A stretch of 24,000 nucleotides of DNA from an uncultured Coriobacteriaceae bacterium (GCA_902801175.1 CADCHF010000011.1:25263-49262), one strand, 5' to 3'. Numbered from the stretch's first letter, positions 2,339 to 24,000 are shown. Numbers and translations are program-made. The notes: a model not told the origin generated them from the sequence alone.

Positions 2339-2448
2339 ACGCACTCTCCCTTTTCCTGCGCGCCTGCGGCCCCATGCCACAGGACTGCTATACCTACGGG
2401 GTGTCCCCCGAAGTTACCTAAGTTCACATACGTGTAACACTATAGCGT

Positions 2449-3162: not shown

Positions 3163-3241
3163 GGTGGGTCTCCTTTCCGGTGTTTTGGTAGTTGCGTTGT
3201 GGGAACGGACGCGGCAGTGTGGCGAGCCAGCGCCCGGAGCT

Positions 3242-4426: not shown

Positions 4427-4543
4427 GAAGACCCACCTCTCAGTAATACGTCATTTCAACAGCCAATAGTTGCAAACATGATACCGCCGCCGACCGTTTG
4501 GGTGCGGCGTGGCGTACCATGACTGGCAGAAGGAGGCACGACT

Positions 4544-5476: not shown

Positions 5477-5551
5477 CCACACACTGCCATTCACAGCAAT
5501 CGCACGAGCTTGGGCTACCATCTTGCGCGATGTCAATTGGAAGGACCACCT

Positions 5552-6487
5552 ATGAAGCATTCAAAGCTTAACCAGTTCCTCGACCTCACGCCCGAGGTCG
5601 CCGAGGCTCTCGCCAACAACAAGCCCGTTGTGGCGCTGGAGTCCACGATCATCTCCCACGGCATGCCCTACCCGCAAAACGTCGAGACCGCCCTGCGCGT
5701 GGAGGCCATCGTGCGCGAGCATGGCGCCGTGCCCGCAACGGTCGCCGTCATTGGCGGTCGCCTGCGCGCCGGCCTTACCCCCGACGAGATCGACTACCTG
5801 GGGCGCAAGGGCCGCGAGGTCATCAAGGTGAGCCGCCGCGACCTGCCCGTGGTCGTGGCGCGCGGGCTTGACGGTGCCACAACGGTTGCCTCCACCATGA
5901 TTGTGGCGGCACTGGCAGGCATCGACGTGTTTGCCACCGGCGGCATTGGCGGCGTGCACCGCGGCGCCGAGACCACAATGGACATCTCGGCCGACCTCGA
6001 GGAGCTTGCCATGACCCCGGTCATGGTCGTGTGCGCTGGTGCCAAGTCGATCCTCGACCTGGGGCTCACGCTTGAGTACCTTGAGACCAAGGGCGTGCCG
6101 GTGCTGGGCTATGGCACCGAGGAGCTGCCCGCCTTCTACACGCGCCACTCTGGCTTTGGCGTTGACTACCGCGTGGACACCCCGGCCGAGCTGGCCTCCA
6201 TCCTGCACACGCAGCGCAAGCTCGACTTCCCCGGCGGCATCCTTGTGGGCAACCCCATCCCTGAGGAGTACTCGATGGACAAGGCGACCATCGACGCCGC
6301 CATTGACCAGGCTCTGGCCGAGTGCGATGAGCAGGGCATTCACGGCAAGGAGACCACGCCCTTCCTGCTGGCGCGCATTGCCGAGATCACGGGCAACGAC
6401 TCGCTCGACTCCAACATCCAGCTGGTCTTTAACAACGTGGCCCTTGGTGCCGAGATTGCCAAGGAGCTCTGTGCGCTGAGGGCGTAA
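5552..6487 (+). CDS. psuG: Pseudouridine-5'-phosphate glycosidase
   Basis: ORF 5510..6487, trimmed to ATG 5552 (GGAAGGA RBS). The protein MKHSKLNQFLDLTPEVAEALANNKPVVALESTIISHGMPYPQN...FATGGIGGVHRG...DISADLEEL...VVCAGAKSILD is the characteristic YeiN/IndA family sequence. Confidence 0.9.
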   Translation: MKHSKLNQFLDLTPEVAEALANNKPVVALESTIISHGMPYPQNVETALRVEAIVREHGAVPATVAVIGGRLRAGLTPDEIDYLGRKGREVIKVSRRDLPVVVARGLDGATTVASTMIVAALAGIDVFATGGIGGVHRGAETTMDISADLEELAMTPVMVVCAGAKSILDLGLTLEYLETKGVPVLGYGTEELPAFYTRHSGFGVDYRVDTPAELASILHTQRKLDFPGGILVGNPIPEEYSMDKATIDAAIDQALAECDEQGIHGKETTPFLLARIAEITGNDSLDSNIQLVFNNVALGAEIAKELCALRA

Positions 6488-8878: not shown

Positions 8879-9020
8879 CTATCAAGAGACGTTTGCGGGC
8901 TTTCCGTCATGGCGCTCGTCGCAGAACGTGCATTGTGCTTCTTCTCTTCTCGCTCGTGCGGCAACGCAGGCGCGCGGTATCATTAGTGCAACTAGTGACA
9001 CAGAGCACGCGGAGGCGCAC

Positions 9021-10535
9021 ATGAGCGAGTTCATGGACATCATCACTGCTAGCAACCTCACCTACGGCCAAAAGCTCATCCATCTGGCACAGGCCGCCGA
9101 GAACTGCGAGCACCCTATTCCCACCACGCCTGAGTTTGACTGGTTCTTTGAGCGTGACGCCATCTGCGACATGCACGAGGGCAACGCGCCCTACCGTCCG
9201 CGCTACATCTGCTGCGACATGGAGCGCTTTGCTCGCCAGGGTAGCGAGTTTTTGCGTCTTGACGCACCGGACAACCTCGATGACCTGCTCATGAACCTGC
9301 AGATCCTCTACCAAAACGTGCCATCCGTCACCGGGCGCCCGGTGTACGTGGGCCAGCTCGACCGTCTGTTTGACCCCTTCCTGGACGGTCTCTCGGACGA
9401 AGAGATCCTCCCGCGTTTCAAGCGTTTCCTCAACTACATTGACCGCACGGTGGCCAGCGGCTACTGCCATGCCAACCTTGGCCCCGAGGACACGCGCGCC
9501 GGCCGTCTGCTGCTGCAGGCAGACGCCGAGGTCCAGAACGCCGTCCCCAACTTTACGCTCAAGTACGAGGAGGGCATCACCCCCGACGACTTCGCGCGCC
9601 TTGCGCTCAAGACGTCCATGGCCTGCGCCAACCCCGCCTATGCCAACCACCGCATGCACAAGCACACCTACGCTGCCCCCGTTGACGGCCCGGCAGACGG
9701 CTACACGGTTGTCTCCTGCTACAACGTGCTGCCCATCCGCGGCGGCGCCTACTGCCTTGACCGCGTGAAGCTCTCGCAGCTGGCCGACCTTGCCACCTCG
9801 CCGGAGCACCTGCTCAACGAACTGCTCCCCAGCGCCACGGGCGCCCTGCTCGAGTACATGGACGCGCGCATCAAGTTCTTGGTCGAGGACTCCAACTTCT
9901 TCCAGACCTCGTTCCTGGCGCGCGAGGGCCTCATTGAGCGCGAGCGCTTTGTGGGCATGTTTGGCATGATCGGCATGCACGAGTGCATCGAGAAGCTGCT
10001 TGGTCCTGGGCACGTGTATGGCACCGACCCCGAGGCCAACGACCTTGCCGACCAGATCATGACCAAGATGACCGCGCAGGTGCAGGCCTGGAACGCTCCC
10101 TACTCCGAGATTGGCAACGGCCGCTACCTCATGCACGCACAGGCCGGCTTTGGCGACCAGACCTCTTCCACGCCCGGCGTGCGCATTCGCGTGGGCGACG
10201 AGCCCGAGGTCTTCTTTGACCATCTGCGCCACTGCGCTCGCATGCACCGCTTCTTTAAGGCGGGCGTGTCCGACATCTTCCCGGTGGAGCCCACGGCCGC
10301 GCAGAACGTGGACGCCCTGCTCGATGTTGTTAAGGGCGCCTTTGCCATTGACGACACCTACCTCTCGTTCTATCCCTCCGACTCCGACCTGGTTCGCATC
10401 ACGGGCTTCCTCGTGAAGCGTTCCGAAATGGAGAAGTTTGCCCGCGGCGAGGCCGTTCTTGCAGACACCAGCCACGACGGCGAGGGCAACTGGCGCGCCA
10501 ACAACCTGGCCGACCGCAAGGTCCGTCTGGGGTAA
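9021..10535 (+). CDS. yjjI: YjjI-family glycine radical enzyme (DUF3029), function unknown
   Basis: ORF 8928..10535, trimmed to ATG 9021 (GGAGG at 9011-9015). The 504-aa protein starts MSEFMDIITASNLTYGQKLIHLAQ. A C-terminal glycyl-radical fingerprint, DLVRITGFLVKR, has its Gly codon at 10404-10406 (residue 462). A dedicated activase gene follows immediately. Overall length and the N-terminal sequence match my recollection of E. coli YjjI. Confidence 0.88.
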   Translation: MSEFMDIITASNLTYGQKLIHLAQAAENCEHPIPTTPEFDWFFERDAICDMHEGNAPYRPRYICCDMERFARQGSEFLRLDAPDNLDDLLMNLQILYQNVPSVTGRPVYVGQLDRLFDPFLDGLSDEEILPRFKRFLNYIDRTVASGYCHANLGPEDTRAGRLLLQADAEVQNAVPNFTLKYEEGITPDDFARLALKTSMACANPAYANHRMHKHTYAAPVDGPADGYTVVSCYNVLPIRGGAYCLDRVKLSQLADLATSPEHLLNELLPSATGALLEYMDARIKFLVEDSNFFQTSFLAREGLIERERFVGMFGMIGMHECIEKLLGPGHVYGTDPEANDLADQIMTKMTAQVQAWNAPYSEIGNGRYLMHAQAGFGDQTSSTPGVRIRVGDEPEVFFDHLRHCARMHRFFKAGVSDIFPVEPTAAQNVDALLDVVKGAFAIDDTYLSFYPSDSDLVRITGFLVKRSEMEKFARGEAVLADTSHDGEGNWRANNLADRKVRLG

Positions 10536-10557
10536 GGCCCAACAGGTAACTTTTGCA

Positions 10558-10584
10558 GGGGACGGCCAGGGGGTGGTCGTCCCC
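10558..10584 (+). other. Stem-loop between the glycyl radical enzyme gene and the activase gene (possible partial terminator or attenuator)
   Basis: GGGGACG (10558-10564) pairs perfectly with CGTCCCC (10578-10584). TCTTCTTTAT follows. It lies 23 nt after the yjjI stop and ends 26 nt before the activase ATG. Confidence 0.3.
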
Positions 10585-10609
10585 TCTTCTTTATGGGGAG
10601 GGCATTCTC

Positions 10610-11449
10610 ATGGAGCTCTATGCACCGGTCAACAAGATGATTCCGTTTTCGCTGGTAGATGGACCGGGATCGAGGTGCTCGATCTTTCTGCAGGGCTGCA
10701 ACATTGCCTGCGCATACTGCCACAACCCCGAGACGCAAAACCTTTGTCTTGAGTGCGGCACCTGCGTTGATCAGTGCCCAGCAGGCGCCCTGTACTGGGA
10801 TGACGGGCACGTAAGGTGGAACAAGGACGCGTGCGTGCAGTGCGACACCTGCATCCACGTGTGTCCACACAAGGCCAGCCCCAAGATTGAATGGCTTACG
10901 CCTCGCGATGTGTTTGAGACCGTGCACTCGTACCAGCCCTTCATTCGCGGTATCACCGTGTCGGGCGGCGAGTGCATGCTGCGCGCCGATTGGATGCGTG
11001 AGCTGTTTGCCCTTTGTCGAGAGGCTGGCTTGGGGACGCTCATCGACAGCAACGGGTGTGTGCCCTTTGAGGGGCAAGACGAGCTGCTGAGCGTTGCGGA
11101 TGGCGTGATGCTCGACGTTAAGGCCTGGGACGAGGCGACCTTTGAGCATCTGACCAGCGGAGACGTGCGTGTGGTCAAGCGCAACCTGGCGCTACTTGCC
11201 GAGCGAGACAAAATCGAGGAGCTGCGCATAGTTGTTGTGCCCGGCTGGAACGACCCCGAGGCAACCATCGCGGGCATCGCTGAGGTGCTGGGTCAGAAGA
11301 CCGCCGCCACCAAGCTGAAGCTCATTCGCTTCCGCAGGTTTGGCGTGGTGGGAGAGCTGGCCGAAGCGGACTCCCCCACCGACGAGCGCATGGCCGAGCT
11401 CGAGAAGCTCGCGAGGAATGCCGGCTTTGAGCTGGTGGAACTCCGCTAG
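10610..11449 (+). CDS. yjjW: YjjW-family glycine radical enzyme activase (radical SAM)
   Basis: ORF 10553..11449, trimmed to ATG 10610 (GGGGAGGG RBS, 7-nt spacer). It has the N-terminal activase motif IPFSLVDGPGSRCSIFLQGCNIACAYCHNPE (CxxxCxxC). Two ferredoxin-type motifs are present: CLECGTCVDQCP and CVQCDTCIHVCP. The SAM-binding GITVSGGEC motif is also present. Confidence 0.9.
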   Translation: MELYAPVNKMIPFSLVDGPGSRCSIFLQGCNIACAYCHNPETQNLCLECGTCVDQCPAGALYWDDGHVRWNKDACVQCDTCIHVCPHKASPKIEWLTPRDVFETVHSYQPFIRGITVSGGECMLRADWMRELFALCREAGLGTLIDSNGCVPFEGQDELLSVADGVMLDVKAWDEATFEHLTSGDVRVVKRNLALLAERDKIEELRIVVVPGWNDPEATIAGIAEVLGQKTAATKLKLIRFRRFGVVGELAEADSPTDERMAELEKLARNAGFELVELR

Positions 11450-11749: not shown

Positions 11750-12745
11750 TTACCCGCAGATGATGGTGCGTAGGCGTGCCTTGGCTGGCTCATCGGCAAA
11801 GCTCGCGTCCACCGCGTTTTGCAGCAGCTGCGTGACCTCGGCATCTCCTAGGCCAAGCTCGCTTGCCAGCAGCATGAGCTCCTGGCTAACCCAGGTGTTG
11901 GACACGGAGTTGTTGTCCGAGCACACAACCACCTTGCAGCCAGCCTTGAGCAGCGTGTCCACAGCACGCACGCCAACCTGGTCAAGTGCTCCGGTTTGCA
12001 GCTCAGAGGTGTAGCACACCTCAATGGGCACCTGTCGCTCGGCAAGCTCACGAACGAGGCCGGGATCCTCAACGGCCCTCACGCCATGGCCAATGCGGCT
12101 CGCGCCCATGGCAAGCGCGTCGCGCACGCTCTTCGGTCCGTCGGCCTCTCCGGCATGTATGGTAAACGGCACGCCAAGCTCACGGGCCCGCTCAAAGAGC
12201 GGAGCGAAGTCCGCCGTGGGAAAGAGCGCCTCGGCACCCGCAAGGTCTGCCGCCACTATCTCGTTGCCCAGATACTCGGCCGAAAGCTCTATCGTCTCGA
12301 GATTGGCCTCAAAGTTGTCTGCGCCGCGCATGCAGCACAGGATCAGCCGGGCCTCAAAGCTCGACCGCCTGAGGCCCCTGAGCGCAGCCTCGACCACCTC
12401 GCGCTGCGTAAGGCCCCGCTCGCGCAGCGACTGCGGAGCAAAGCGCAGCTCGGCGTACGCATAGCCGCGCTGCAGCAGCTCCTCTTGCAAGAGATAGATG
12501 TGCTCCTCGACCTGCTCGCGCGTTTGGATGAGCGAGAGCGGGAACACAAACTTGTCCAGGTACTCGTTAAGGTCCTCGCAGCTGTCCCCCACCGACAGGC
12601 GGTCAAAGACCTCCGCGTCGCTCACATCGAGCGGAATGCCGCCCAGCTCGGCCAGACGTCGGGCGGCAGGAACGCTGATGGAGCCATCGCTGTGAAGGTG
12701 CAGGTCAACAAGGCGCCCGCGTAGGCGCTCAAGACTTACCGTCAT
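11750..12745 (-). CDS. add: Adenosine deaminase
   Basis: A 331-aa ORF. It has the N-terminal metal-binding VDLHLHSDGS motif (HxH), FTIHAGEADGP (the HAGE motif) and VVCSDNNSVSNT (the C-terminal Asp motif of the Gram-positive Add type). Its ATG is 3 nt after the deoC stop. Confidence 0.85.
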   Translation of the reverse strand: MTVSLERLRGRLVDLHLHSDGSISVPAARRLAELGGIPLDVSDAEVFDRLSVGDSCEDLNEYLDKFVFPLSLIQTREQVEEHIYLLQEELLQRGYAYAELRFAPQSLRERGLTQREVVEAALRGLRRSSFEARLILCCMRGADNFEANLETIELSAEYLGNEIVAADLAGAEALFPTADFAPLFERARELGVPFTIHAGEADGPKSVRDALAMGASRIGHGVRAVEDPGLVRELAERQVPIEVCYTSELQTGALDQVGVRAVDTLLKAGCKVVVCSDNNSVSNTWVSQELMLLASELGLGDAEVTQLLQNAVDASFADEPAKARLRTIICG

Positions 12746-12748
12746 GCC

Positions 12749-13390
12749 CTACCCCTCGATGATGGCGATGCTGGCACTCGTGCCCAGCCTGTCGGCGCCT
12801 GCGGCAACCATGGCCTCGGCCTCGGCACGGGCGTGCATGCCACCTGCGGCCTTGACCTTGCAGCGGTCGCCCACGGTCTGGCGCATGAGCTCCACATCGT
12901 GCACCGTGGCACCACCGGTCGAGAATCCCGTGCTCGTCTTGACAAAGTCCGCCCCAGCGGCAACGGAGCACTCGCACGCGCGCACGATCTCTTCGTCGGT
13001 AAGCAGGCAGCACTCCAAAATGACCTTCACCTTTGCGTCACCCGCAGCTTCGACCACTGCAGCAATGTCGCGCGTGCAGAACTCGTCATCGCCATCCTTA
13101 AGGCGCCCCACGTTGATGACCATGTCAATCTCGGTGGCACCGTCGGCCACAGCCTGAGCCGTCTCGGCAGCCTTGGCCAGCGTGGAGCAGGCCCCCAGGG
13201 GGAAGCCCACCACGGTGGTCACGCCCACGCCCCAGCCGGCCACAAGGGCTGCCGCGAGTGAGGTCCAACTGGAGTTAACGCACACGGTGGCAAACCTGTG
13301 CTCGCGGGCCTCGTCGCAGAGGCGCTCGATGTCTGCACGACGTGCATCCTGCTTGAGGTTGGTGTGGTCGATGATGGCGCTCAGCTGCAT
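12749..13390 (-). CDS. deoC: Deoxyribose-phosphate aldolase
   Basis: ORF 12749..13585, trimmed to ATG 13390 (AAGGAGAAACC upstream). The 213-aa protein reads [16 protein letters not shown]...ATVCVN...VVGFPLGA...IDMVINVG...VKVILE...[10 protein letters not shown] (Schiff-base Lys)...KVKAAGG. This is the classic class I DeoC pattern. Confidence 0.92.
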
Positions 13391-13535
13391 GGTTTCTCCT
13401 TTGAATGTTAGAAAAGCTATTGGCAAAGAGTATACCGCCCGCCACGTACAGAAAACCACCGGCATGCCTTGGACGGACCGAGGCCCCAACCAATAGAATG
13501 GCTGGTGAATCCAAGCGGACCCAAGGAGCACAGCC

Positions 13536-14315
13536 ATGAGGCAGTACGTTGTTGACGCATTCACCGACCAGGTCTTTAGCGGCAATCAGGCCGCCGTATG
13601 CGTGATGGAAGCCTGGCCAAACGAGCGCCTCATGATGGCCATCGCACGCGAGAACAACTTCTCAGAGACAGCCTTTACCGTGCGCGAACCCGACGGCAGC
13701 TATCGCCTTAGGTGGTTTACCCCCACGAGCGAGGTGGACCTCTGCGGTCATGCGACGCTCGCCACCTCGTATGTGCTGTTCAACTTCTATGAGCAAGATG
13801 CCAGCACGATCTGCTTCCACACCACCTCGAGCGGCGACCTCTTTATTGGCAGGCGCGGCGACCTCATACAGATGGACTTCCCCGCCTATAAGCTGCACGA
13901 GGTGCCCGTGACCAGCGCCATGGAAGAGGCGACTGGCGCGAGGCCAAGCGCCGCCTACCTCGACCGCGACCTGCTGCTTGTGTACGACAGCGAGGGCATC
14001 GTGCGAAACATGCACCCAAGCCCCGAGAGCATCGAGCAGCTTGCGGGCATGGGCGTGGCCGTAACGGCACCCGGTACCTCGCATGACTGCGTGTCTCGCT
14101 TCTTTGTCCCCAAGATCGGCGTTGCCGAGGACCCCGTCACCGGGTCGGTGCACTGCATGATCGGCCCCTATTGGGGAGGGCGCCTTAGCAAGTCGTCCAT
14201 CAGCGCCTACCAGGCGTCCGAGCGTGGCGGGGAGATGCTGCTCGAACTCAAGGGGGACCGTGTGCTCATCCTAGGCAAGGCCGCGCTCTTCTCAAAGGCC
14301 GAGCTCAACCTGTAG
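13536..14315 (+). CDS. PhzF family isomerase (phenazine biosynthesis-like protein)
   Basis: A 259-aa ORF with an AAGGAG RBS. The protein reads [23 protein letters not shown]...[13 protein letters not shown]...[19 protein letters not shown]...[16 protein letters not shown]. These are diagnostic PhzF/YddE family blocks. Confidence 0.85.
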
Positions 14316-14338: not shown

Positions 14339-15784
14339 TCAGCCGTTGCTGCCATCGACAACGCGCGTGCGTGAGAGCTCCATTTGCATGATTGCGTTGC
14401 ACAGTGCGGAATGGCGAATCTCAAAGTGAATCTTTGGCTCGTTGAGCTTAGATATGACCATGAGGTTGTCGCCATAGTAGACGATTCGCAGGTTCTTGAA
14501 CACCTCGGCGCACATGACCTCTCCCTCTCCCTCACTGTCCCTGCGCCTCTGCTCGCGCTCAAAGCGCTCAAAGCTCACGGGCTCGTCCACGCGGTAGATT
14601 CGCATGAGTGGCGCGGCATGCTCAAGCAGGTGCTTTGCACGGCGCATCCCATAGCTCACTTCCTCTGGCTTGGTCGTAAAGTAGTAGCGACCGTCGTTAT
14701 GACTGCCCCTCACGCACTCGGCCTCGAGCATGGCAACGTTGGAGGCGTTAATGAGGTGGCAGAACAGGCTCTCGGGCTCGTTGCGCAGGTAGTAGGCCGA
14801 AATCTGTCCAGTCATATAGAGCGGAATGTAGGCCTCGAGCCCCATCATCATCTCTTTGAAGGGGCGCGTGACGTCATGGATCACGTTTAGGTGCACCCCG
14901 CGCTTGAGCAATGCGGCCAGGTAATGGATGTAGCGGCGCATAAAGTCTCGATCGGCACCAAGCTCAAAGATGGGCATGGTAGAGCAGAGCGTCATCTCGT
15001 GCACGTCGGGCGACGTGGCCACCGTGCGAAGGAAATCCAGCTCGGCCTCGCGCATGTCCTCAATGCCGTAGTAGAAGTGCCCCAGCGTCTCAACAGCAGG
15101 CTCGTCGGGCAACTCAACCTCGTCGTCCTGCGAGTTCTTGATATAGGCATTGAAATCGAAGCCATCCAGATAGCTCAGCACGTGCTCGGCGCCAGAATCT
15201 TCGCGCATGCCATCCTGCCTGAGCAGCCAAGTGCTCAGCGCATAGGTCGCGGCCTGCTCGTCGCCCTGTTGCAGTGCCGTCTCCAAAGCCGCAAGGTCGC
15301 CATTGCGCAAAGGTAGCCCATCGCTGTTTCCTCGAACAATCAGTCGATGCGCCAAATAGCTCGCGAACAGGTCTGCATAAAAGACCAGGGCGTTTGGGTT
15401 GCGCTGCCCGCGACGAATGCGCGAGAGGTACGAAGGGTCAACGTTGGTGGACCGCGCCATCTCGGCATTTGTGACCGAAAGCGCGTCCATGAGCTCGTCC
15501 AGTTTGAGGCTGAATGACAGGTCTGGCGTCGTCATGAGGCCAGCAGCACGAGAAAGCCGCTCTACGACTTCTTGCTCGCTCGTGGCACCATAGACATCCC
15601 GCTCGGTCGCAAGCTGTGAGATGCCCGAAGCCAGACTCGGGATCACCCTAAAGTCCACAGGCACACGCGCCCCGCTGCGATAGCGGCTCAAGGTGCTTGG
15701 GTCAAAGCCACAGGCGCTCGCCAGCTCCATATTGCTGCAGCCAAGGGCGGTGCAGTAGCGATTGAGCTCTGAGGAAAAGTTCAT
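14339..15784 (-). CDS. Transcriptional regulator with two tandem XRE-type HTH modules and a roughly 330-aa uncharacterised C-terminal domain
   Basis: A 481-aa ORF with an AAGGAGGACAC RBS before the ATG. Module 1 is LNRYCTALGCSNMELASACGFDPSTLSRYRSGARVP. Module 2 is LDELMDALSVTNAEMARSTNVDPSYLSRIRRGQRNP. I did not recognise a family for the C-terminal two thirds. Confidence 0.75.
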   Translation of the reverse strand: MNFSSELNRYCTALGCSNMELASACGFDPSTLSRYRSGARVPVDFRVIPSLASGISQLATERDVYGATSEQEVVERLSRAAGLMTTPDLSFSLKLDELMDALSVTNAEMARSTNVDPSYLSRIRRGQRNPNALVFYADLFASYLAHRLIVRGNSDGLPLRNGDLAALETALQQGDEQAATYALSTWLLRQDGMREDSGAEHVLSYLDGFDFNAYIKNSQDDEVELPDEPAVETLGHFYYGIEDMREAELDFLRTVATSPDVHEMTLCSTMPIFELGADRDFMRRYIHYLAALLKRGVHLNVIHDVTRPFKEMMMGLEAYIPLYMTGQISAYYLRNEPESLFCHLINASNVAMLEAECVRGSHNDGRYYFTTKPEEVSYGMRRAKHLLEHAAPLMRIYRVDEPVSFERFEREQRRRDSEGEGEVMCAEVFKNLRIVYYGDNLMVISKLNEPKIHFEIRHSALCNAIMQMELSRTRVVDGSNG

Positions 15785-16160: not shown

Positions 16161-16410
16161 GGCTATACCTCCCGCTTGCGCGAAACATCTCTGTAATAAT
16201 CGACTTTAATGTTACTACTTTGTTTCGACGCGTCAATACAAAAGGCAGGGGATTTTTGCCTTTGACCAACTGGCCAAGAGAAGTGCATTGCGGGCAGCTT
16301 TGCAGGTATCGCCAATATCATCTCCTGGCACACGGACTGCAGACGCGGTTGGTTTTGCCTGCCACGCCCGTGCTACCATGCCAGTGTTACGACATACGAA
16401 AGGACCTGCC

Positions 16411-17619
16411 ATGCGTTTTGACTTCACCACCATCCCGGACCGCCATGGCCACGACGCCATTGCAATTGATGGCTTGGGTGACGGCACTGGCTTTGCACCA
16501 GCCGGGCCCAAGGAAGGCTTTGACTCGATCCCACTGTGGGTTGCCGACATGAGCTTTGCCACGGCACCCTCGGTCACGCGCGCCATGCACGAGCGCATCG
16601 ACCACCCCTTCTTTGGCTACTACGCCGAAACCGACACCTATTACCAGGCCATCATCGACTGGCACGCCAACCGCAAGGGCGTCACCGACATCACGCGCGA
16701 CTGCATTGGCTACGAGAACGGCGTACTCGGAGGCGTTGTGAGCGCACTCGACGTGCTCTGCTCCCGCGGCGACAACGTGCTCGTTCACTCCCCCACCTAC
16801 GTGGGATTTACCGGCTGCTGCGAGAACAACGGCTATCACCTGGTTCATAGCCCACTCGTGCTCGACGAGGCCGGCGTGTGGCGCATGGACTTTGAAGACA
16901 TGGAGCGGCGCATTGTAGACAACAAGATCCACTGCGCCATCTTCTGCTCGCCGCACAACCCCTGCGGTCGCGTGTGGGAGCGCTGGGAGCTTGAGAAGGC
17001 CATGGCGCTCTTTGAGAAGCACGACGTGTGGGTCATCTCCGACGAGATCTGGAGCGACATCCTGCTCAACGGCAACACCCACACCCCCACGCAGCAGGTG
17101 AGCGAGTGGGCACACGAGCACACCGTTGCCCTTTACGCACCGTCCAAGACCTTCAACCTGGCCGGCCTTATTGGCTCCTACCACGTTATCTACAACCCGT
17201 GGCTGCGCGACCGCGTGCGCAAGCAGAGCTCGCTTGGCCACTACAACAGCCAGAACGTCGTGAGCATGCATGCGCTGGTTGGCGCGTACAGCGAGGAGGG
17301 CGCCGCCTGGACCAACGAGCTCTGCCAGGTGCTGTCCGCAAACGTTAACTACGCGCACGAGAAGCTGGCGTCCTACGAAGGCGTGACGTGCGCCCATCCA
17401 GAGGGCACCTATGTGCTGCTTGCCGACTGTCGCGAGTGGTGTGACGCCCACGGCGTGAGCTACGCGGACTTCCCGCGCCTGGGCTGGGATGTGGGCGTGA
17501 CCTGGCACGACGGGCGCCTGTTTGAGTGCCCGGGCTTTGTGCGCATTGCCGTGAGCGTGCCGCACTCGCAGGTAGTAGAGGCCTTTGACCGGCTGGACCG
17601 CCACGTGTTTGGTGCGTAG
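16411..17619 (+). CDS. MalY/PatB-family PLP-dependent C-S lyase (cystathionine beta-lyase-type aminotransferase class I/II)
   Basis: ORF 16288..17619, trimmed to ATG 16411. The protein starts MRFDFTTIPDRHGHDAIAI. It also contains WVADMSF, FGYY, HSPTYVGF, CSPHNPCGRVW, DEIWSD and the PLP-lysine block YAPSKTFNLAGL. Confidence 0.85.
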   Translation: MRFDFTTIPDRHGHDAIAIDGLGDGTGFAPAGPKEGFDSIPLWVADMSFATAPSVTRAMHERIDHPFFGYYAETDTYYQAIIDWHANRKGVTDITRDCIGYENGVLGGVVSALDVLCSRGDNVLVHSPTYVGFTGCCENNGYHLVHSPLVLDEAGVWRMDFEDMERRIVDNKIHCAIFCSPHNPCGRVWERWELEKAMALFEKHDVWVISDEIWSDILLNGNTHTPTQQVSEWAHEHTVALYAPSKTFNLAGLIGSYHVIYNPWLRDRVRKQSSLGHYNSQNVVSMHALVGAYSEEGAAWTNELCQVLSANVNYAHEKLASYEGVTCAHPEGTYVLLADCREWCDAHGVSYADFPRLGWDVGVTWHDGRLFECPGFVRIAVSVPHSQVVEAFDRLDRHVFGA

Positions 17620-17793: not shown

Positions 17794-18852
17794 CTACTTA
17801 CGGATGTCTCCCCTGTCCACAGAGATCTCGTAACCAATGAGATTCATGCGCAGGCCCAGGCAACCCTTGCACTGCGCGGACTCCTCGCCGGTGCAAATCT
17901 TGTTGTCGTAGAGCTCGTACTGCTTGCGAACGGCAACGGGAGACAGGTTGGGCATCACCACGTTGGCACCCGCGAGCATCCCCTTCTCGCGACCGCGCGG
18001 GTCAATGGTTCCGAGGGCCGTCGTTGCCGGCAGCAGAACGTTGGGATAGATGAGCCTTATCAGACTCAGCAGGTAAAGGGTCATGTCGAGCGTGCCGGCC
18101 GGCTCATCGCGAAACGGCGTGTCGTGGTGCGGGATAAAGGGGCCAATGCCGCACATGTCGGGCTTGAAGTCCTCCACAAAGCGCAGCTCCTGCACCAGGT
18201 GCTCCATCGTTTGGAAGGGCGAGCCGACCATGAAGCCCGCGCCAACCTGAAAGCCCACCTCACGCAGGTCGCGCAGGCACTGCATGCGATGTTCCCAGCT
18301 CATGGTTGCAGGATGCAGCCGGGCGTAGTGCTCGGGATTGGCCGTCTCGTGGCGCAGCAGGTAGCGCGATGCGCCCGCGTCAAACAGGTGCTGGTAGCTC
18401 TCGCGGTTCCGCTCTCCCATCGAGAGGGTGACGGCCGTGTCGGGGCAGCTCTCACAGATGCGGCGCACCACGTCCCCTAGCACCTCGTCGGCGTAGTACG
18501 CGTCCTCGCCGCCCTGAAGCACAATGGTGCGAAATCCCAGCTCCCAGCCCTCGCGCGCACAGTCGACAATGGTGTCGGGCTCTAGGCGATAGCGCTCCAC
18601 GTTGGTGTTTGAGCGCCTAATGCCGCAGTACAGGCAATCGTTTTTGCAGATGTTGGAAATCTCGATGAGCCCACGCACAAAGACCTTCTTGCCATAGATG
18701 GGCTCTCGGGCCTCCACCGCTTTCTCTGCCAGCAGCTCCGCCAGCTCGGGCGAGCGGTTTGCAAGCAGCGCGCGGTAACCCTCGTCATCAAGGTGATGCT
18801 CACTGGCAAGCTGGTCGACCAGCGCCACCAGCTCGGCAGATGGTTGGCTCAT
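17794..18852 (-). CDS. hydE: [FeFe]-hydrogenase H-cluster radical SAM maturase HydE
   Basis: A 352-aa ORF. IEISNICKNDCLYCGIRRSN carries the CxxxCxxC motif. Other blocks are IVLQGGED, YLLRHETANP, GAGFMVG, CGIGPFIPHHDTP, LPATTALGTI, GANVVMPN and YELYDNKIC. They match block by block the Thermotoga maritima HydE sequence as I recall it, and the length is right. Confidence 0.9.
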   Translation of the reverse strand: MSQPSAELVALVDQLASEHHLDDEGYRALLANRSPELAELLAEKAVEAREPIYGKKVFVRGLIEISNICKNDCLYCGIRRSNTNVERYRLEPDTIVDCAREGWELGFRTIVLQGGEDAYYADEVLGDVVRRICESCPDTAVTLSMGERNRESYQHLFDAGASRYLLRHETANPEHYARLHPATMSWEHRMQCLRDLREVGFQVGAGFMVGSPFQTMEHLVQELRFVEDFKPDMCGIGPFIPHHDTPFRDEPAGTLDMTLYLLSLIRLIYPNVLLPATTALGTIDPRGREKGMLAGANVVMPNLSPVAVRKQYELYDNKICTGEESAQCKGCLGLRMNLIGYEISVDRGDIRK

Positions 18853-18856
18853 GGCA

Positions 18857-18896
18857 GGTTCCTCTCGGTCGGATGAGAATCCTCTCAGTCGGATGT
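18857..18896. repeat. Tandem 20-nt direct repeat covering the hydE Shine-Dalgarno region
   Basis: On the + strand, CCTCTCGGTCGGATG (18861-18875) and CCTCTCAGTCGGATG (18881-18895) are 14/15 identical with a 20-nt period. On the minus strand this reads CATCCGACTGAGAGGATTCT CATCCGACCGAGAGGAACCT GCC ATG, so the GAGAGG SD is duplicated. Confidence 0.6.
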
Positions 18897-18919
18897 TCCA
18901 TCAATATACGAAACGCTCG

Positions 18920-18940
18920 GCAAATGCAAGCCGCATTTGC
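18920..18940. promoter_or_regulatory. Perfect palindrome GCAAATGC-N5-GCATTTGC in the hydE / nifH-like divergent control region (candidate operator)
   Basis: Read directly at 18920-18927 and 18933-18940, near the centre of the 211-bp divergent intergenic region. Function is inferred from position only. Confidence 0.3.
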
Positions 18941-19063
18941 GTTGTACAGATGGCGAAGCCTTCTAGAAGAAGAGACGGCTATAGGCTTTTGCTATGATGG
19001 CCCTGTACACTCACGATCTGACCGCGAGGACCTGTCCAAGCAGGAAGACACGAGGTTTTTACC

Positions 19064-19843
19064 ATGCTCAAGATTGCTCTTTATGGCAAGGGCGGCATCG
19101 GCAAGTCCACGATGACCAGCAACCTTGCCGCCGCATTTGCCACGTTGGGTAAGCGCGTCATCCAGATTGGCTGCGACCCCAAGGCCGACTCCACCATCAA
19201 CCTGCTCGGCGGGCAGCCGCTTGAGCCCGTCATGACCTACCTGCGGCTCCATGACGACGACCCCAGCTCGATCGACGAGATTGCGCGCGAGGGCTTTGGC
19301 GGAGTCCTTTGCATTGAGACCGGTGGACCCACCCCGGGCCTTGGCTGCGCCGGCCGTGGCATCATTGCCACCTTTAACCTGCTCGAGGACCTGCGCCTCT
19401 TTGAGACCTACCAGCCCGACGTGGTCCTCTACGACGTGTTGGGCGATGTGGTGTGCGGAGGCTTTGCCGCCCCCATTCGCGAGGGCTATGCCGAAAAGGT
19501 GCTCATCGTCACCTCTGGCGAGAAGATGGCCCTCTATGCGGCAAACAACATCAGCACCGCCGTGCACAACTTTGAGGACCGCGGCTACGCCAAGGTCGCC
19601 GGCATCATCCTCAACCATCGCAACGTGCCCGACGAGACCGCCAAGGTCCAGGCCTTTGCCGACGAGCACGACCTTGCCATTGTGGCCGAGATTCCTCGCT
19701 CCGACGATATCAACCGCTGCGAGGACCAGGGCATGACGGTTGTGGAAGCCGACCCGACCCTTCCCGTGAGCCGTCGCTTTATTGAGCTGGCCGAGCAGCT
19801 GCTCGCCAATGCCGAGGCCGACCACACACCCGAGCAGGAGTAA
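19064..19843 (+). CDS. NifH/BchL-family nitrogenase-iron-protein-like ATPase ([4Fe-4S] dimer type)
   Basis: A 259-aa ORF. The Walker A is [10 protein letters not shown] and switch I is GCDPKADST. Both cluster-ligand cysteines sit in canonical context: [15 protein letters not shown] (C95) and [17 protein letters not shown] (C131). These compare with NifH ESGGPEPGVGCAGRGVI and [17 protein letters not shown]. It also has [13 protein letters not shown]. Confidence 0.9.
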
Positions 19844-19845
19844 CC

Positions 19846-22242
19846 ATGCAACAAGCCGCCCGCTTCTACACGGCGGCCGAGCTCGCACGTCGAGGGGTCG
19901 ATGACCTTCCCGACGAGCTGGTTTCGTCCCGCCACCTTATCTATAGCTCGCCCGCAACACTGGCATACAACTCACCGGGTGCCGAGGGCTTTGGCGTAAA
20001 GCGCGCAGGCCTGGCCATTCCCGGCTCGGTCATGCTCGTTGTGGCCCCTGGCTGCTGTGGGCGCAACACCTCGCTCATTAGCGAGATGCCCGCCTATCAC
20101 GACCGCTTCTTCTACCTCACGATGGACGAGACCGACATTGTGACCGGACGCCACCTGCGCAAGATTCCCCAGGCGGTCGAGGAGGTCGTGGCGCGCCTCG
20201 AGACGGCACCGAGCGTGGTGATGATCTGCATCACCTGCGTCGACGCCCTTTTGGGCACCGACATGGAGCGCGTGTGCCGCCGTGCCGAGGAGCGCGCAGG
20301 CGTGCCCGTGCGGCCCTGCTACATGTACGCCCTCACGCGCGAGGGCCGCAGGCCGCCCATGGTGCACGTGCGCCAGAGCCTCTACTCGCTGCTCAAGCCG
20401 CGTCGCAAGCGTGCGACCTCGGTGAACATCATGGGCAGCTTTGCCCCGTACGCCAGCGACTGCGAGCTTTACCGCTACCTTGCCGGCATTGGCGTGCGCA
20501 CGGTGCGCGAGGTGTCCCGCTGCGCCAGCCTCGCGGAGTTTGAGGACATGGCCGAGGCAAACTTCAACCTGGTGCTGCATCCCGAGGCGCGCTTTGCAGC
20601 GGCCGACCTGCAGGAGCGTCTGCAGATTCCCTCGATTGAGCTCACCCGTCTCTATCAGCTCGACCGGATTCGTCGCCAGTACCAGGCCCTAGGCCAGGTG
20701 CTTGGGGCAAGCTTTGACGACGAGGCGGACTATGCCGCTGCCGAGGGGGCTATCGAGGCCTTCCGCGCGGCCCAGCCAGACGCAAGCTTTGCCGTGGGCG
20801 AGTGCCTTAACGCCGACCCCTTTGAGCTTGCACTGGCCCTTGTGCGCTACGGATTTGCCGTGCGCGAGGTGTTTGGCACCATCTCGGCCGAGAACTTTGT
20901 CTTTGTGCGGCACCTGGCCGAGCTTGCGCCCGAGGTTCGCGTGTACTCCAACATGGAGCCCACGATGATTCACTATGACGCCGCCGAATGCCCGGTAAGC
21001 GTTGCCCTGGGCAAGGACGCCGGCTGGTATCACCCCGAGGCCGTGTGCCTGCCGTGGAACTCCGACGTGCAGCCCTTTGGCTATGCGGGAGTACGGGCGC
21101 TCTTTGAGTCGCTGCGCGAGGCTTGCGCCGAGGATGCTGGCAAGGGCGCGGAAAGCCCCGCGCCTGCCAGCCCAGCCGACAACCTGCGCCCGCTCGACCT
21201 CGCCAAGCCGCTCCCTCGCGGCCTGCGCACCTATCTCACGCCCTTTGCGCCAGACCAGTCGGGTGCCGTGTCGGTGCTCTACGAGCTGGGTGGACTCACC
21301 GTCATCTGCGACGCAGGCGGCTGCACCGGCAACGTCTGCGGCTTTGACGAGCCGCGCTGGCACAACGAGCGCTCGGCTGTGTTTAGCGCGGGCCTGCGTG
21401 ACATGGACGCCATCATGGGTCGCGACGACAAGCTCGTGGCCGAGCTCGCCGACGCAGCCACCAAGATTGATGCCCGTTTTGCGGCCGTAGTGGGCACGCC
21501 CGTCCCGGCTGTCATTGGCACCGACTACCGGGCACTGCGCCGAATGGCAGAGCGCGCCTGCGACCTTCCGGTGGTCACGGTAGACTCCTCGGGCACGCGC
21601 CTTTACGACGACGGCGCCCGCAAGGCCTACCTCGCCCTCTTTGAGCGCTTTGCCACCGAGGAGCTGCCAGTTGTGCCCGGCCGCGTAGGTGTGATTGGCG
21701 CCAACCCGCTCGACATCGACGCGCTCGACTCGCACGAGATCTGCGAGGCCATCCCCGGTGCCGTCTGCTATGGCATGGGCGCGGGCCTCGACGACATCGC
21801 CGCAGCCTCGAGCGCCGAGCGCAACGTGGTCGTTGCCCCCTCGGGCCTTGCCGCGGCACAGCTGCTGCAGAAGCGCTTTGGCACTCCGTACGAGGTGCTC
21901 GACCCACGCGCCACGCGCATGGCGGTCCAGATGGACGTTGCGGGCAAGCGCGTGCTCATCGTCCACCAGCAGGTCACGGCAAACTCACTGCGCGAGGAGC
22001 TCCTCGCAAAGGGCGCGCTTGAGGTCAACTGCGCCACCTGGTTCATGCAGGACCGCTCCCTTGCAAAGCCGCAGGACGTCCACCTTGCCGAGGAGGCCGA
22101 CTTTGCCCGTCTTGTGGCCGAGGGCTCCTTTGACGTGATCGTGGGCGACCCCGTCCTGTGGCGCATCATTGGCAACTGGGACGGCACCACCTATGACCTG
22201 CCACAGTTTGCGGTCTCGGGAAAGCTCGGTGGAAACTCATGA
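19846..22242 (+). CDS. Single-chain fusion of two nitrogenase component-1-type (NifD/E/BchN-like plus NifK/N/BchB-like) oxidoreductase domains
   Basis: A 798-aa ORF starting 2 nt after the nifH-like stop, with AGGAG 5 nt upstream. The N-terminal half has VVAPGCCGRN (C70/C71) and VMICITCVDALLGTD (C128/C131), the xxTCxxxxIGxD block of the family. A Pro/Ala-rich linker EDAGKGAESPAPASPADNLRPLDLAKP lies at about nt 21118-21226. The C-terminal half has VICDAGGCTGNVCG (C488/C493/C498) and AAVVGTPVPAVIGTD. Confidence 0.82.
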   Translation: MQQAARFYTAAELARRGVDDLPDELVSSRHLIYSSPATLAYNSPGAEGFGVKRAGLAIPGSVMLVVAPGCCGRNTSLISEMPAYHDRFFYLTMDETDIVTGRHLRKIPQAVEEVVARLETAPSVVMICITCVDALLGTDMERVCRRAEERAGVPVRPCYMYALTREGRRPPMVHVRQSLYSLLKPRRKRATSVNIMGSFAPYASDCELYRYLAGIGVRTVREVSRCASLAEFEDMAEANFNLVLHPEARFAAADLQERLQIPSIELTRLYQLDRIRRQYQALGQVLGASFDDEADYAAAEGAIEAFRAAQPDASFAVGECLNADPFELALALVRYGFAVREVFGTISAENFVFVRHLAELAPEVRVYSNMEPTMIHYDAAECPVSVALGKDAGWYHPEAVCLPWNSDVQPFGYAGVRALFESLREACAEDAGKGAESPAPASPADNLRPLDLAKPLPRGLRTYLTPFAPDQSGAVSVLYELGGLTVICDAGGCTGNVCGFDEPRWHNERSAVFSAGLRDMDAIMGRDDKLVAELADAATKIDARFAAVVGTPVPAVIGTDYRALRRMAERACDLPVVTVDSSGTRLYDDGARKAYLALFERFATEELPVVPGRVGVIGANPLDIDALDSHEICEAIPGAVCYGMGAGLDDIAAASSAERNVVVAPSGLAAAQLLQKRFGTPYEVLDPRATRMAVQMDVAGKRVLIVHQQVTANSLREELLAKGALEVNCATWFMQDRSLAKPQDVHLAEEADFARLVAEGSFDVIVGDPVLWRIIGNWDGTTYDLPQFAVSGKLGGNS

Positions 22243-24000
22243 GCACCGTCACCCGTCGCATCCGCATGTACGGCATTGTGCAGGGCGTGGGCTTTCGCCC
22301 AACGGTAGACCGCCACGCAACGGCGACCGGCATTGCGGGCACCGTGTGCAACAAGGGTCCCTACGTTGAGATCTTTGCCCAGGGCACGCAGGAGCAGATT
22401 GACCGCTTTGTGGAGCTCATGCACACCCGTCCGCCCAAGCGCGCGACCATCGTGCGGATGGACGTCAAGCCAGTGGACGACGCACCGCAATACGAGGGCT
22501 TTTCCATCGTGGAGAGCGAGCGCACCCGCGGCGAGATCTTCATCTCGCCCGACCTCGCCATCTGCGACGACTGCCAACGCGAGCTCTTTGACCCCACCGA
22601 CCGTCGCTACCTGCACCCCTTCATCAACTGCACCAACTGCGGGCCGCGCATGACCATCCTCAACGCGCTGCCCTACGATCGCGTGCGCACGAGCATGCGG
22701 GTCTTTCCCATGTGCCCCACCTGCGCCGAGGAGTATCACAACCCGGCGAGCCGCAGGTACGATGCCCAGCCGGTCTGTTGCAACGACTGTGGGCCCGAGG
22801 TCTACCTGCTCGACAGGCCCGAGCGTGGGCGTGCGGCCATCTCTGAGGCGCGACGCATCCTGAGCGAGGGTGGCACCGTGGCCGTAAAGGGCATTGGCGG
22901 CTTCCACCTGGCCTGCGACGCCACCAACCCTGCGGCGGTGGAGCTGCTGCGCGAGCGCAAGCGCCGCTCGGCCAAGCCCTTTGCCATCATGGCGCGCGAC
23001 CTTGCCACCGCCGAGCGCGAGTGCGAGGTCTCTCCCGCAGCGAGGGAGCTGCTCTGCGGCCACCAAAAGCCCATCCTGCTGTTGCCAAAGCGCGAAGACG
23101 GGATATGCTGCGAGGCCGTGGCCCCGCACAACCCAAAGCTGGGTGTCATGCTCCCCTACGCGCCGTTGCAGCTGTTGCTCTTTAACTATGACGACGGCAT
23201 TGACATGCCCGACTGCCTGGTGATGACCAGCGCAAACGAGAGCGGAGCCCCCATCTGTCGCGACGACGATGACGCCCGCGGCGAGCTTGGGCCTCTTTGC
23301 GACGCCATCCTCTCCCACGACCGCGTCATCCGCATGCGTGCCGACGACACCGTGCTCGACCTCTTTGAGGAGCGTCCCTACATGGTGCGCCGCTCCCGCG
23401 GATGGGCACCGCTGCCCTTTGTGATCTCGGGCGGGCTTGGTGCGCGCGTGCTGGCCGTGGGAGGCGAGCTCAAGAACAGCTTTTGCCTGGGCTCGGGCGA
23501 TCTCATCTACCCCTCGCCCTACGTGGGCGACCTCTCGGACGTGCGCACCGTGCACGCCTGCGAGGACGCCATTGGGCTCTTCTCGACCCTCTTGGAGTTT
23601 GAGCCCGAGGTCGTTGCCTGCGACCTGCACCCGCGCTACAACGCCACACTCGTGGCCGAGGAGATTGCAGAGGAAAAGGGCCTGCCCGTTGTGCGCGTGC
23701 AGCACCACTATGCCCACGTGGCCGCCTGCATGGCCGAGAACGACGTGGAAGGCCCTGTCATTGGCATCTCGTTTGACGGGACGGGCTACGGCACCGACGG
23801 CACCATCTGGGGCGGCGAGGTGCTGCTCTCAAGCTACCACGGCTTTGAGCGCGTGGGTCACATTGCCCCGTTTGCGCAGGTGGGAGGCGACCTTTCGGCT
23901 CGCGAGGGCTGGCGGTGCGCCATGGCGCTCCTGCGCGACTGCAGCGAGAGCGACGACGAGGCAGCCAGTCGCGCGGAGGCTCTGGGACTTTGCACCGCTG
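22239..24000 (+). CDS. hypF: HypF carbamoyltransferase, N-terminal ~587 aa; the gene continues past the window end
   Basis: Absent from the ORF track because it has no stop in the window. ATG 22239 overlaps the upstream TGA as ATGA. The acylphosphatase domain is RIRMYGIVQGVGFRPTV. The two zinc-finger pairs are CDDCQREL...CTNCGPR and CPTCAEEY...CNDCGPE. The YrdC-like block is VAVKGIGGFHLACDA and the Kae1-like block is VQHHYAHVAACMAEN...GISFDGTGYGTDGTIWGGE. Confidence 0.92.
   Translation, partial: MSTVTRRIRMYGIVQGVGFRPTVDRHATATGIAGTVCNKGPYVEIFAQGTQEQIDRFVELMHTRPPKRATIVRMDVKPVDDAPQYEGFSIVESERTRGEIFISPDLAICDDCQRELFDPTDRRYLHPFINCTNCGPRMTILNALPYDRVRTSMRVFPMCPTCAEEYHNPASRRYDAQPVCCNDCGPEVYLLDRPERGRAAISEARRILSEGGTVAVKGIGGFHLACDATNPAAVELLRERKRRSAKPFAIMARDLATAERECEVSPAARELLCGHQKPILLLPKREDGICCEAVAPHNPKLGVMLPYAPLQLLLFNYDDGIDMPDCLVMTSANESGAPICRDDDDARGELGPLCDAILSHDRVIRMRADDTVLDLFEERPYMVRRSRGWAPLPFVISGGLGARVLAVGGELKNSFCLGSGDLIYPSPYVGDLSDVRTVHACEDAIGLFSTLLEFEPEVVACDLHPRYNATLVAEEIAEEKGLPVVRVQHHYAHVAACMAENDVEGPVIGISFDGTGYGTDGTIWGGEVLLSSYHGFERVGHIAPFAQVGGDLSAREGWRCAMALLRDCSESDDEAASRAEALGLCTA

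Follow-up and report, generated by a model that had tools for sequence, protein, structure and literature searches.

Organization of the nfl/hyp locus

The DNA described here is a stretch of 24,000 nucleotides (~62% G+C) from an uncultured Coriobacteriaceae bacterium (GCA_902801175.1 CADCHF010000011.1:25263-49262), referred to throughout as the window, and its 3' end carries the beginning of an operon in which genes for nitrogenase-like proteins are joined to hyp genes. The first gene, nflH, encodes a NifH-like ATPase; it is followed by a gene for a fusion of two nitrogenase-like halves, designated D1 and K1 (together D1K1), and by hypF, which is cut by the window end (Table 1). The nflH stop codon (TAA, 19841-19843) is followed by the two nucleotides 'cc' and then by the fusion ATG at 19846, and the fusion stop codon (TGA, 22240-22242) overlaps the hypF start codon (ATG, 22239-22241) as ATGA. 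An initial annotation of this DNA had described the three genes as a single translational unit with a 2-nt gap and an ATGA overlap, and had considered that further members might lie beyond the window; the open reading frames bear out the former, and the missing members are found on a contig, L001, that encodes an identical 798-aa fusion protein. There, downstream of a full hypF (791 aa), lie hypC, hypD, hypE and a second D/K pair, D2K2, made up of nflD2 (438 aa, L001:17101-18417) and nflK2 (372 aa, matching Oxidored_nitro), and then a convergent channel-like gene. The gene order in this lineage is thus nflH - nflD1K1 (fused) - hypF - hypC - hypD - hypE - nflD2 - nflK2, with hydE divergent upstream. 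The operon is conserved and some 11-13 kb long, and only its 5' third lies in the window. The region between hydE and nflH is presumed to contain the promoter; a promoter and terminator scan of it found no promoter-like site and no sigma-70 consensus match, and an Rfam scan of the whole window, this region included, gave no family match.

Table 1. Features of the nfl/hyp locus in the window
Feature	Position	Strand	Evidence
hydE, radical S-adenosylmethionine [FeFe]-hydrogenase H-cluster maturase homologue	17794..18852	-	divergent from operon; TIGR03956, 552 bits (cut-off 254.6)
hydE-nflH divergent intergenic region, 211 bp, presumed promoter region	18853..19063	.	read from sequence
nflH, NifH-like [4Fe-4S] ATPase, 259 aa	19064..19843	+	Fer4_NifH, 294.6 bits
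nflD1K1, whole fusion gene, 798 aa	19846..22242	+	Oxidored_nitro, two stretches
D1, N-terminal half (NifD/NifE-like), residues 1-430	19846..21135	+	Oxidored_nitro match; paralogue of NflD2
Low-complexity linker between the halves, residues 431-457	21136..21216	+	variable/gapped in alignment; pLDDT <50 at residues 432-443
K1, C-terminal half (NifK/NifN-like), residues 458-798	21217..22242	+	paralogue of NflK2
hypF, carbamoyltransferase, first 587 of 791 codons	22239..24000	+	open at window end; TIGR00143, 604.5 bits (cut-off 466)

Conservation of the cluster in two phyla

Scanning one genome per species yielded 347 relatives, the best 80 loci of which were kept, and neighbours were counted only in loci long enough to judge. 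Over these 80 species loci, drawn from Actinomycetota and Bacillota, the gene order is almost invariant. In 76/76 loci judged, the D/K gene has a nifH-like gene immediately upstream, and the remaining members follow with few exceptions: hypF and hypC in 69/70 each, hypD in 67/67, hypE in 65/65, nflD2 in 59/60 and nflK2 in 53/56. The hosts are hundreds of gut, rumen and acetogenic anaerobes, including Atopobiaceae/Olsenella, many Lachnospiraceae (Dorea, Faecalicatena, Blautia, Mediterraneibacter, Bilifractor and others) and the Clostridium acetogens C. ljungdahlii, C. carboxidivorans, C. ragsdalei, C. drakei, C. luticellarii and C. muellerianum; in a library clustered at 50% identity, 628 representatives match at E <= 1e-30. 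The components co-diverge: from locus to locus, their identities to the window proteins vary together (Spearman 0.35-0.71), and between phyla identity stays at ~75-80% for NflH and ~70-75% for HypE, which fits a cluster that moves as one unit.

In many Firmicutes, nflD2 is preceded by an extra TM1266-family gene and by a second nflH, and nflK2 is followed by hydF-hydE. Among 40 fully flanked loci, the TM1266-family gene (114 bits, cut-off 61) occurs in 25, the second nifH-like gene likewise in 25, and hydF (522 bits, cut-off 326) after nflK2 in 23, mostly with hydE. Many other loci have hydE within 10 kb of the cluster, commonly alongside hydF. The window contains neither hydF, hydG nor a TM1266 gene. 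The TM1266 gene encodes a 90-aa 'iron-only hydrogenase system putative regulator' and directly precedes the second nifH-like gene (L083:17500-17772 and 41 other loci).

Clustering of the open reading frames within +/-10 kb of the cluster in 85 loci revealed no conserved [NiFe] large or small subunit, hypA, hypB, maturation protease, hydG or nifB, no NifB or MarB homologue, and no sulfur-metabolism or tetrapyrrole gene as a conserved neighbour. Beyond the members of the cluster and the TM1266, hydF and hydE genes, no conserved neighbour emerged. All statements below on absent neighbours refer to these 85 loci. The initial annotation had reasoned that a standard hypCDE and [NiFe]-hydrogenase operon downstream, together with orthologous pairs lacking hypF in other genomes, would make the adjacency coincidental. 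We find that hypC, hypD and hypE do follow hypF, but that no [NiFe]-hydrogenase does; a second D/K pair is found instead, and the hyp linkage is kept in essentially every orthologous locus. This supports the interpretation given in the initial annotation: the hyp/nfl linkage is conserved, and coincidence is improbable.

A few loci are rearranged. In Bilifractor (L073, L077, L080) hypF has been relocated behind hydF-hydE, and in L036 and L061 nflH2-nflD2-nflK2 precede nflH1; the gene set is kept though the order differs. One locus on a contig labelled Moraxellaceae bacterium (L059, CAVITM010000027.1) has a Firmicute-like cluster with hydF-hydE and no local hypF; the label is probably a binning or contamination error.

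The NifH-like and Hyp proteins

NflH is a member of the Fer4_NifH ATPase family (PF00142). It carries the Walker A motif GKGGIGKS, switch I as CDPKADST, the C95 motif GCAGRG and the switch II/C131 motif, and Walker A, both switches, C95 and C131 are 100% conserved in 106 relatives, so that the ATPase and both [4Fe-4S] ligand cysteines noticed at the outset are indeed intact. Its scores fall under every equivalog cut-off: 304 against 394 bits for nifH (TIGR01287), ~298 against 402 for CfbC (NF033200), 212 against 345 for BchL and 202.5 against 331 for BchX. NflH2, the product of the second nifH-like gene, likewise falls under the nifH cut-off (342 against 394).

HypF, in which all canonical domains had been noted, has the Acylphosphatase, two zf-HYPF, the YrdC-like and the Kae1-like domains by Pfam, and even its truncated copy in the window exceeds the TIGR00143 equivalog cut-off. 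HypC, HypD and HypE also score above their NCBIfam cut-offs. Catalytic residues are kept in 97-100% of 48-72 orthologues, namely C2 and H45 of HypC (the latter equivalent to E. coli H51), CGxHxH, GPGCPVC and the C-terminal cluster cysteines of HypD, and HypE's cysteine at the C terminus. Judged by these residues, the Hyp proteins look fully functional.

The nitrogenase-like D/K proteins

Both halves of the fusion belong to the nitrogenase component-1 superfamily. The protein matches Oxidored_nitro (PF00148) with 180 bits in two stretches, and its AlphaFold2 model (predicted local distance difference test, pLDDT, 83; predicted template modelling score, pTM, 0.83) has as its closest Foldseek match the naturally fused NifE-NifN of PDB entry 9i0g (GmNifEN; E 1.4e-24), followed by NifEN, NifDK, VnfDK, Mar and DPOR chains at E 1e-24 to 1e-11. 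The sequence similarity of the D/K proteins to the solved NifEN, NifDK, Mar and DPOR chains is only remote, and the fusion scores far below the equivalog cut-offs (107 against 505 bits for nifE, 38 against 654 for nifD and 74 against 1229 for fused NifEN); it also fails the CfbD model at its NCBIfam cut-off. The profile searches proposed by the initial annotation uphold the nitrogenase-family assignment and, as judged by the NCBIfam cut-offs, suggest that the NifH-like/fusion pair lies outside the characterised clades.

D1 is paralogous to NflD2 (hhalign probability 99.95%, E 9e-38) and K1 to NflK2 (100%, E 1.5e-57), hence the operon encodes two D/K-type systems, D1K1 and D2K2. The 438-aa NflD2 of the window's lineage has no Pfam or NCBIfam match, but its Firmicute orthologues do match Oxidored_nitro.

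The single-chain form described at first holds for the window and not for the family. Among 77 complete species loci, D1K1 is fused in 51 and is encoded by two translationally coupled genes in 26, among them those of Dorea, Faecalicatena, all Clostridium acetogens and the nearest relatives of the window. The split loci have a stop codon and a new start in place of the linker, and their second gene begins at a conserved M(R/K)GLRKYLTPFAPDQ. The fused form is optional, and not a family trait.

The expectation of cysteines at family-typical positions in both halves is correct only in part. C71 aligns with NifE C37/NifD C62, C131 with NifD C154/NifE C124, and C493 with the interface cysteine of NifN and NifK (NifK C70 equivalent), so that D1K1 keeps three of the four [4Fe-4S] ligand positions of NifEN (NifE C37, C62 and C124 and NifN C44). 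At the position of NifD C88 there is Y90, at that of NifD C275, the ligand of the iron-molybdenum cofactor (FeMo-co), there is P246/H245, and the additional cysteines C70, C128, C488 and C498 are specific to this family. C70, C71, C128, C131 and H103 are invariant in D1; in K1, C493 is invariant, C498 is conserved in 95% and C488 in 65%. The residues that are extra and invariant or near-invariant close to the cluster positions comprise C70, C128, C498, C488, H103 and H396. D2K2 carries a different set: C53, C57, C120, H122 and H39 in D2, and C40, H35, H47 and H132 in K2. In NifDK, VnfDK and AnfDK, FeMo-co is bound by alpha-C275 and alpha-H442, and the P-cluster by six cysteines (alpha-62, -88 and -154; beta-70, -95 and -153). 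When D1K1 is compared with them at these six cysteines, only the equivalents of alpha-62, alpha-154 and beta-70 are present. The absence of the FeMo-co cysteine equivalent, and of nifB, nifE and nifN nearby, is in accordance with the first assessment that this is not a nitrogen-fixation locus.

Two further features of these proteins deserve mention. The stretches of lowest confidence in the AlphaFold model of the fusion (residues 35-47, 162-173, 490-499, 517-524 and 552-556) coincide with the most conserved motifs, including CDAGGCTGNVC, and are likely cofactor- or partner-binding loops that are disordered in a model built without ligands. In addition, NflD2 often ends in GCxSC(I/L)-COOH (C434 conserved in 85% and C437 in 57%), a terminal cysteine pair with a loose resemblance to the metal-binding motif at the C terminus of [NiFe] large subunits, which may be due to chance.

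A candidate route from HypCDEF to a nitrogenase-like acceptor

Gene content, motif conservation, paralogy and synteny form the basis of the following reading. According to the known chemistry of these families, HypF and HypE would convert carbamoyl phosphate into a cyanide donor, and HypC and HypD would assemble an Fe(CN)2(CO) unit. In the route that we envisage, this unit would be passed to a nitrogenase-like D/K protein and not to the large subunit of a [NiFe]-hydrogenase. NflH would dock on the D/K protein and, by analogy with NifH, deliver ATP-driven low-potential electrons through an interface Fe-S cluster, held presumably by C71, C131, C493 and nearby cysteines. One D/K pair would serve as an assembly scaffold and the other as the final enzyme, as do NifEN and NifDK; this division of labour is a guess by analogy, and any catalytic activity of the final enzyme is an inference. 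That Hyp and Nfl proteins are functionally linked is very probable. That an Nfl protein is the acceptor of Fe(CN)2CO we regard as about as likely as not; the same even confidence applies to the dedicated route as a whole, in which HypCDEF would build the unit, NflH would act as reductant and D1K1 and D2K2 would behave like NifEN and NifDK.

Among the known systems, NifEN with NifH offers the closest parallel. Besides the structural match to fused GmNifEN and then to other NifEN chains, the two have in common three of four [4Fe-4S] ligand positions (NifE C37 and C124 and the NifN interface cysteine), a NifH-like ATPase partner, a second paralogous D/K pair in the operon, as nifEN stands beside nifDK, and the occurrence of fused and split forms. 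NifEN differs in sequence, having 15-18% identity to D1K1; moreover, the nfl halves are shorter (~430 and ~340 aa), the nfl cluster lacks nifB and a cysteine at the NifD C275 position, and its cofactor-supply genes are hypCDEF, with or without hydE and hydF, in place of nifB. The non-nitrogen-fixing Group IV systems (CfbCD, MarBHDK, Isr and NfaBHDK) also combine a NifH-like ATPase with Oxidored_nitro D/K proteins, and they too retain the cluster-ligand cysteines only in part. Yet NflH falls short of the CfbC cut-off of F430 synthesis, the D/K proteins match MarD of methylthio-alkane reductase (9fmg, 9d9u) only at E 7e-4 to 3e-6, and nfl loci lack both a NifB/MarB homologue and the sulfur or tetrapyrrole genes as conserved neighbours.

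Could the nitrogenase-like enzyme simply reduce a cyano or carbamoyl intermediate made by HypF and HypE, such as protein-bound thiocyanate or cyanide, with HypC and HypD as mere carriers? This was the second alternative of the initial annotation. Nitrogenases are known to reduce cyanide, and hypF is the very gene that is translationally coupled to the D/K gene. On the other hand, HypC and HypD retain all residues for building and carrying Fe(CN)2CO, which would be pointless for a simple cyanide reductase, the FeMo-co/L-cluster cysteine of the substrate-reducing relatives is absent, as is nifB, and there is no apparent physiological reason to make cyanide just to reduce it. Given these points we rank this explanation as highly improbable.

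Hydrogenases of the host genomes

Apparent independence from [NiFe]-hydrogenase is one argument for the dedicated route. The cluster shares with the HypABCDEF pathway HypF, HypC, HypD and HypE above their equivalog or subfamily cut-offs and with all catalytic residues, but it differs in that hypA, hypB, an endopeptidase and the large and small subunits, which would make a complete [NiFe] maturation locus, are missing in and near it, and in that it occurs in genera reported to lack [NiFe]-hydrogenases. Dorea longicatena CC00515 is listed with only [FeFe] A2, A3 and B hydrogenases and with a pair of 'NifH' genes separated by eight locus tags, the spacing that the cluster predicts (Welsh et al. 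2025, PMC12578642 supplement), and no [NiFe] enzyme is recorded in two Dorea and at least four Olsenella rumen genomes (Greening et al. 2019, PMC6776011 Table S2). In C. carboxidivorans, hypCDE and hypAB lie beside the [NiFe]-hydrogenase, and a second hypCDE with the sole hypF is found at Ccar_RS09595-09610 (PMC9431212), which corresponds to the cluster locus L023. The same source gives hypCDEF without hypAB for C. ljungdahlii, C. autoethanogenum, C. ragsdalei and C. coskatii. Given the Dorea and Olsenella genomes without a [NiFe] enzyme and the separate hypCDE of C. carboxidivorans, the cluster appears independent of [NiFe]-hydrogenase.

These data also bear on an explanation by which the co-location reflects shared regulation or history, hyp serving a [NiFe]-hydrogenase elsewhere and Nfl being a reductase for an unrelated small molecule, comparable to Mar and Isr with their organosulfur substrates. 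Each cluster-bearing Clostridium acetogen species has one group 1a [NiFe]-hydrogenase elsewhere in the genome, and most have no other hyp genes (PMC9431212); Group IV nitrogenase-like systems are often linked to sulfur metabolism (2026 Chemical Reviews article), and the window has a PatB-type C-S lyase 1.4 kb upstream. Against this, order and translational coupling are kept across both phyla, the surveyed Dorea and Olsenella hosts lack a [NiFe]-hydrogenase, the [NiFe] locus of C. carboxidivorans has a hypCDE set of its own, the cluster never contains hypA/B or the maturation protease, and the C-S lyase adjoins it in L001 only, with no sulfur-metabolism gene conserved nearby. On this evidence we consider such an explanation very improbable.

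Several points weigh against the dedicated route itself. We know of no Fe(CN)2CO-binding motif in nitrogenase-like proteins. With hydE, hydF and TM1266 as neighbours, a link to [FeFe] maturation suggests itself for which the model has no explanation. In most Clostridium acetogens the cluster is the only hyp set, so it may also serve the group 1a [NiFe]-hydrogenase. For D. longicatena, we infer the match to the cluster from gene spacing and not from sequence. Its two 'NifH' genes stand at 0 transcripts per million in a poor transcriptome (PMC12578642), and gut 'nitrogenase' genes are reported to be minimally transcribed.

The main rival to the dedicated route holds that the Nfl proteins are accessory maturases, an ATP-driven low-potential reductase, for a [NiFe]- or [FeFe]-hydrogenase encoded elsewhere, as proposed by Dos Santos et al. 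2012 (PMC3464626). They might reduce the [4Fe-4S]/disulfide relay of HypD, generate the CO ligand out of CO2 or a C1 donor, or remodel Fe-CO-CN synthons for HydE and HydF. In [NiFe] cofactor synthesis, the chief unsettled points are where the CO ligand comes from under anaerobic conditions and what donates electrons to HypD, and reduction of CO2 to CO needs about -530 mV and ATP (PMC12134894), both of which fit a maturase. So do the frequencies of hydF and TM1266 and of hydE as a companion, the divergent hydE of the window and the [FeFe]-hydrogenases found in all hosts; the HydE, HydF and TM1266 homologues, which flank the cluster or lie inside it, score above equivalog cut-offs. Unlike a HydE/HydF/HydG system, however, the cluster never has hydG as a conserved neighbour, and in the Clostridium acetogens hydE and hydF are located elsewhere in the genome; the link of hydE, hydF and TM1266 to the cluster may be mere adjacency of maturation genes. 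Most organisms with [NiFe]- or [FeFe]-hydrogenases mature their enzymes without this cluster, two complete paralogous D/K systems exceed the needs of reductant supply, the H-cluster requires Fe(CO)2CN units but HypCD yields Fe(CN)2CO, and D. longicatena has no [NiFe] client (PMC12578642). Taken together, a maturase role seems unlikely to us, though far from negligible. A HydG-independent route, considered on account of the 'missing hydG' reported for several acetogens (PMC9431212), was dropped, as that report relied on motif matching alone and names atypical HydG candidates of its own.

Other genes in the window

A gene for a PatB-family C-S lyase (16288-17619, +) adjoins hydE, a tempting neighbour given the cysteine-derived chemistry of HydE; as it accompanies the cluster only on the window's own contig, it was dropped as a cluster member. 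Farther upstream lie genes for a YjjI-family glycyl radical enzyme (8928-10535, +; 578 bits) and a YjjW-family activase (10553-11449, +; 365 bits). Two regions of nucleoside-salvage genes (1274-6487 and 11750-13585) encode a Bmp-family binding protein, a nucleoside phosphorylase, a phosphopentomutase-like metalloenzyme, an adenosine deaminase, a DeoC-family aldolase, and a PfkB kinase with an Indigoidine_A-family protein, the last two probably being pseudouridine kinase and glycosidase. The longest open reading frames at 2449-3435 (-) and 3242-4426 (-) overlap by ~190 nt, and the phosphorylase Pfam match begins only at residue 106; the real phosphorylase start is therefore probably downstream of the longest-frame start. 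A 481-aa protein encoded at 14339-15784 (-) has two N-terminal helix-turn-helix domains and a long C-terminal part without a Pfam or NCBIfam match, and it is not conserved beside the cluster in other loci.

Earlier observations and implications

The association of Hyp and Nfl proteins has been noticed before. Dos Santos et al. 2012 (PMC3464626) remarked in one sentence that in Coprococcus catus and other Firmicutes, NifHEN-like proteins adjoin proteins of hydrogenase maturation, and listed CLJU_c23120 and c23050 under NifH and c23110 and c23030 under NifE; these four genes belong to the C. ljungdahlii copy of the cluster. In our search of the literature on nitrogenase-like proteins with Hyp or Hyd, this was the sole direct earlier mention and no follow-up was found, nor did a search with the locus tags of the cluster in C. 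ljungdahlii and C. autoethanogenum return a paper. PMC10418091 and PMC3515406 proved to have no bearing on the association. The 2026 Chemical Reviews article on nitrogenase-like systems mentions neither a Hyp nor a HydE association, and states that gene context is of little help for the uncharacterised nitrogenase-like groups. The cluster is a real, widespread and uncharacterised nitrogenase-like variant in which Hyp proteins, with or without HydE and HydF, replace NifB as the cofactor supply.

The NifH-like genes of the cluster are probably included in the 'NifH' counts of gut and rumen surveys (PMC12578642 and PMC6776011 supplements), and the potential for nitrogen fixation in such surveys may be overstated. 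The cluster also puts an ATP-driven low-potential reductase beside HypCD, which makes testable the question, raised in PMC12134894, of the CO-ligand origin and the HypD electron donor.

What would the dedicated route mean, if true? A nitrogenase-like protein supplied by Hyp would give CN/CO-ligated iron a new home and the nitrogenase superfamily a new branch. To our knowledge, such iron is found in biology only in three hydrogenase classes. In its furthest form, the proposal is that a D/K protein carries an iron-cyanide-carbonyl cofactor built by HypCDEF, processed by HydE and HydF in some lineages and reduced by the NifH-like protein, thereby defining a new class of organometallic enzyme; we advance this tentatively, as a possibility that is somewhat doubtful. 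Such an enzyme might be a nickel-free, ATP-coupled H2- or C1-converting enzyme of abundant gut bacteria and industrial acetogens. The hosts are accessible, comprising common human-gut Dorea and the genetically tractable industrial acetogens C. ljungdahlii and relatives, and simple work in the latter could bring to light a new organometallic enzyme or else a step still missing from hydrogenase maturation.

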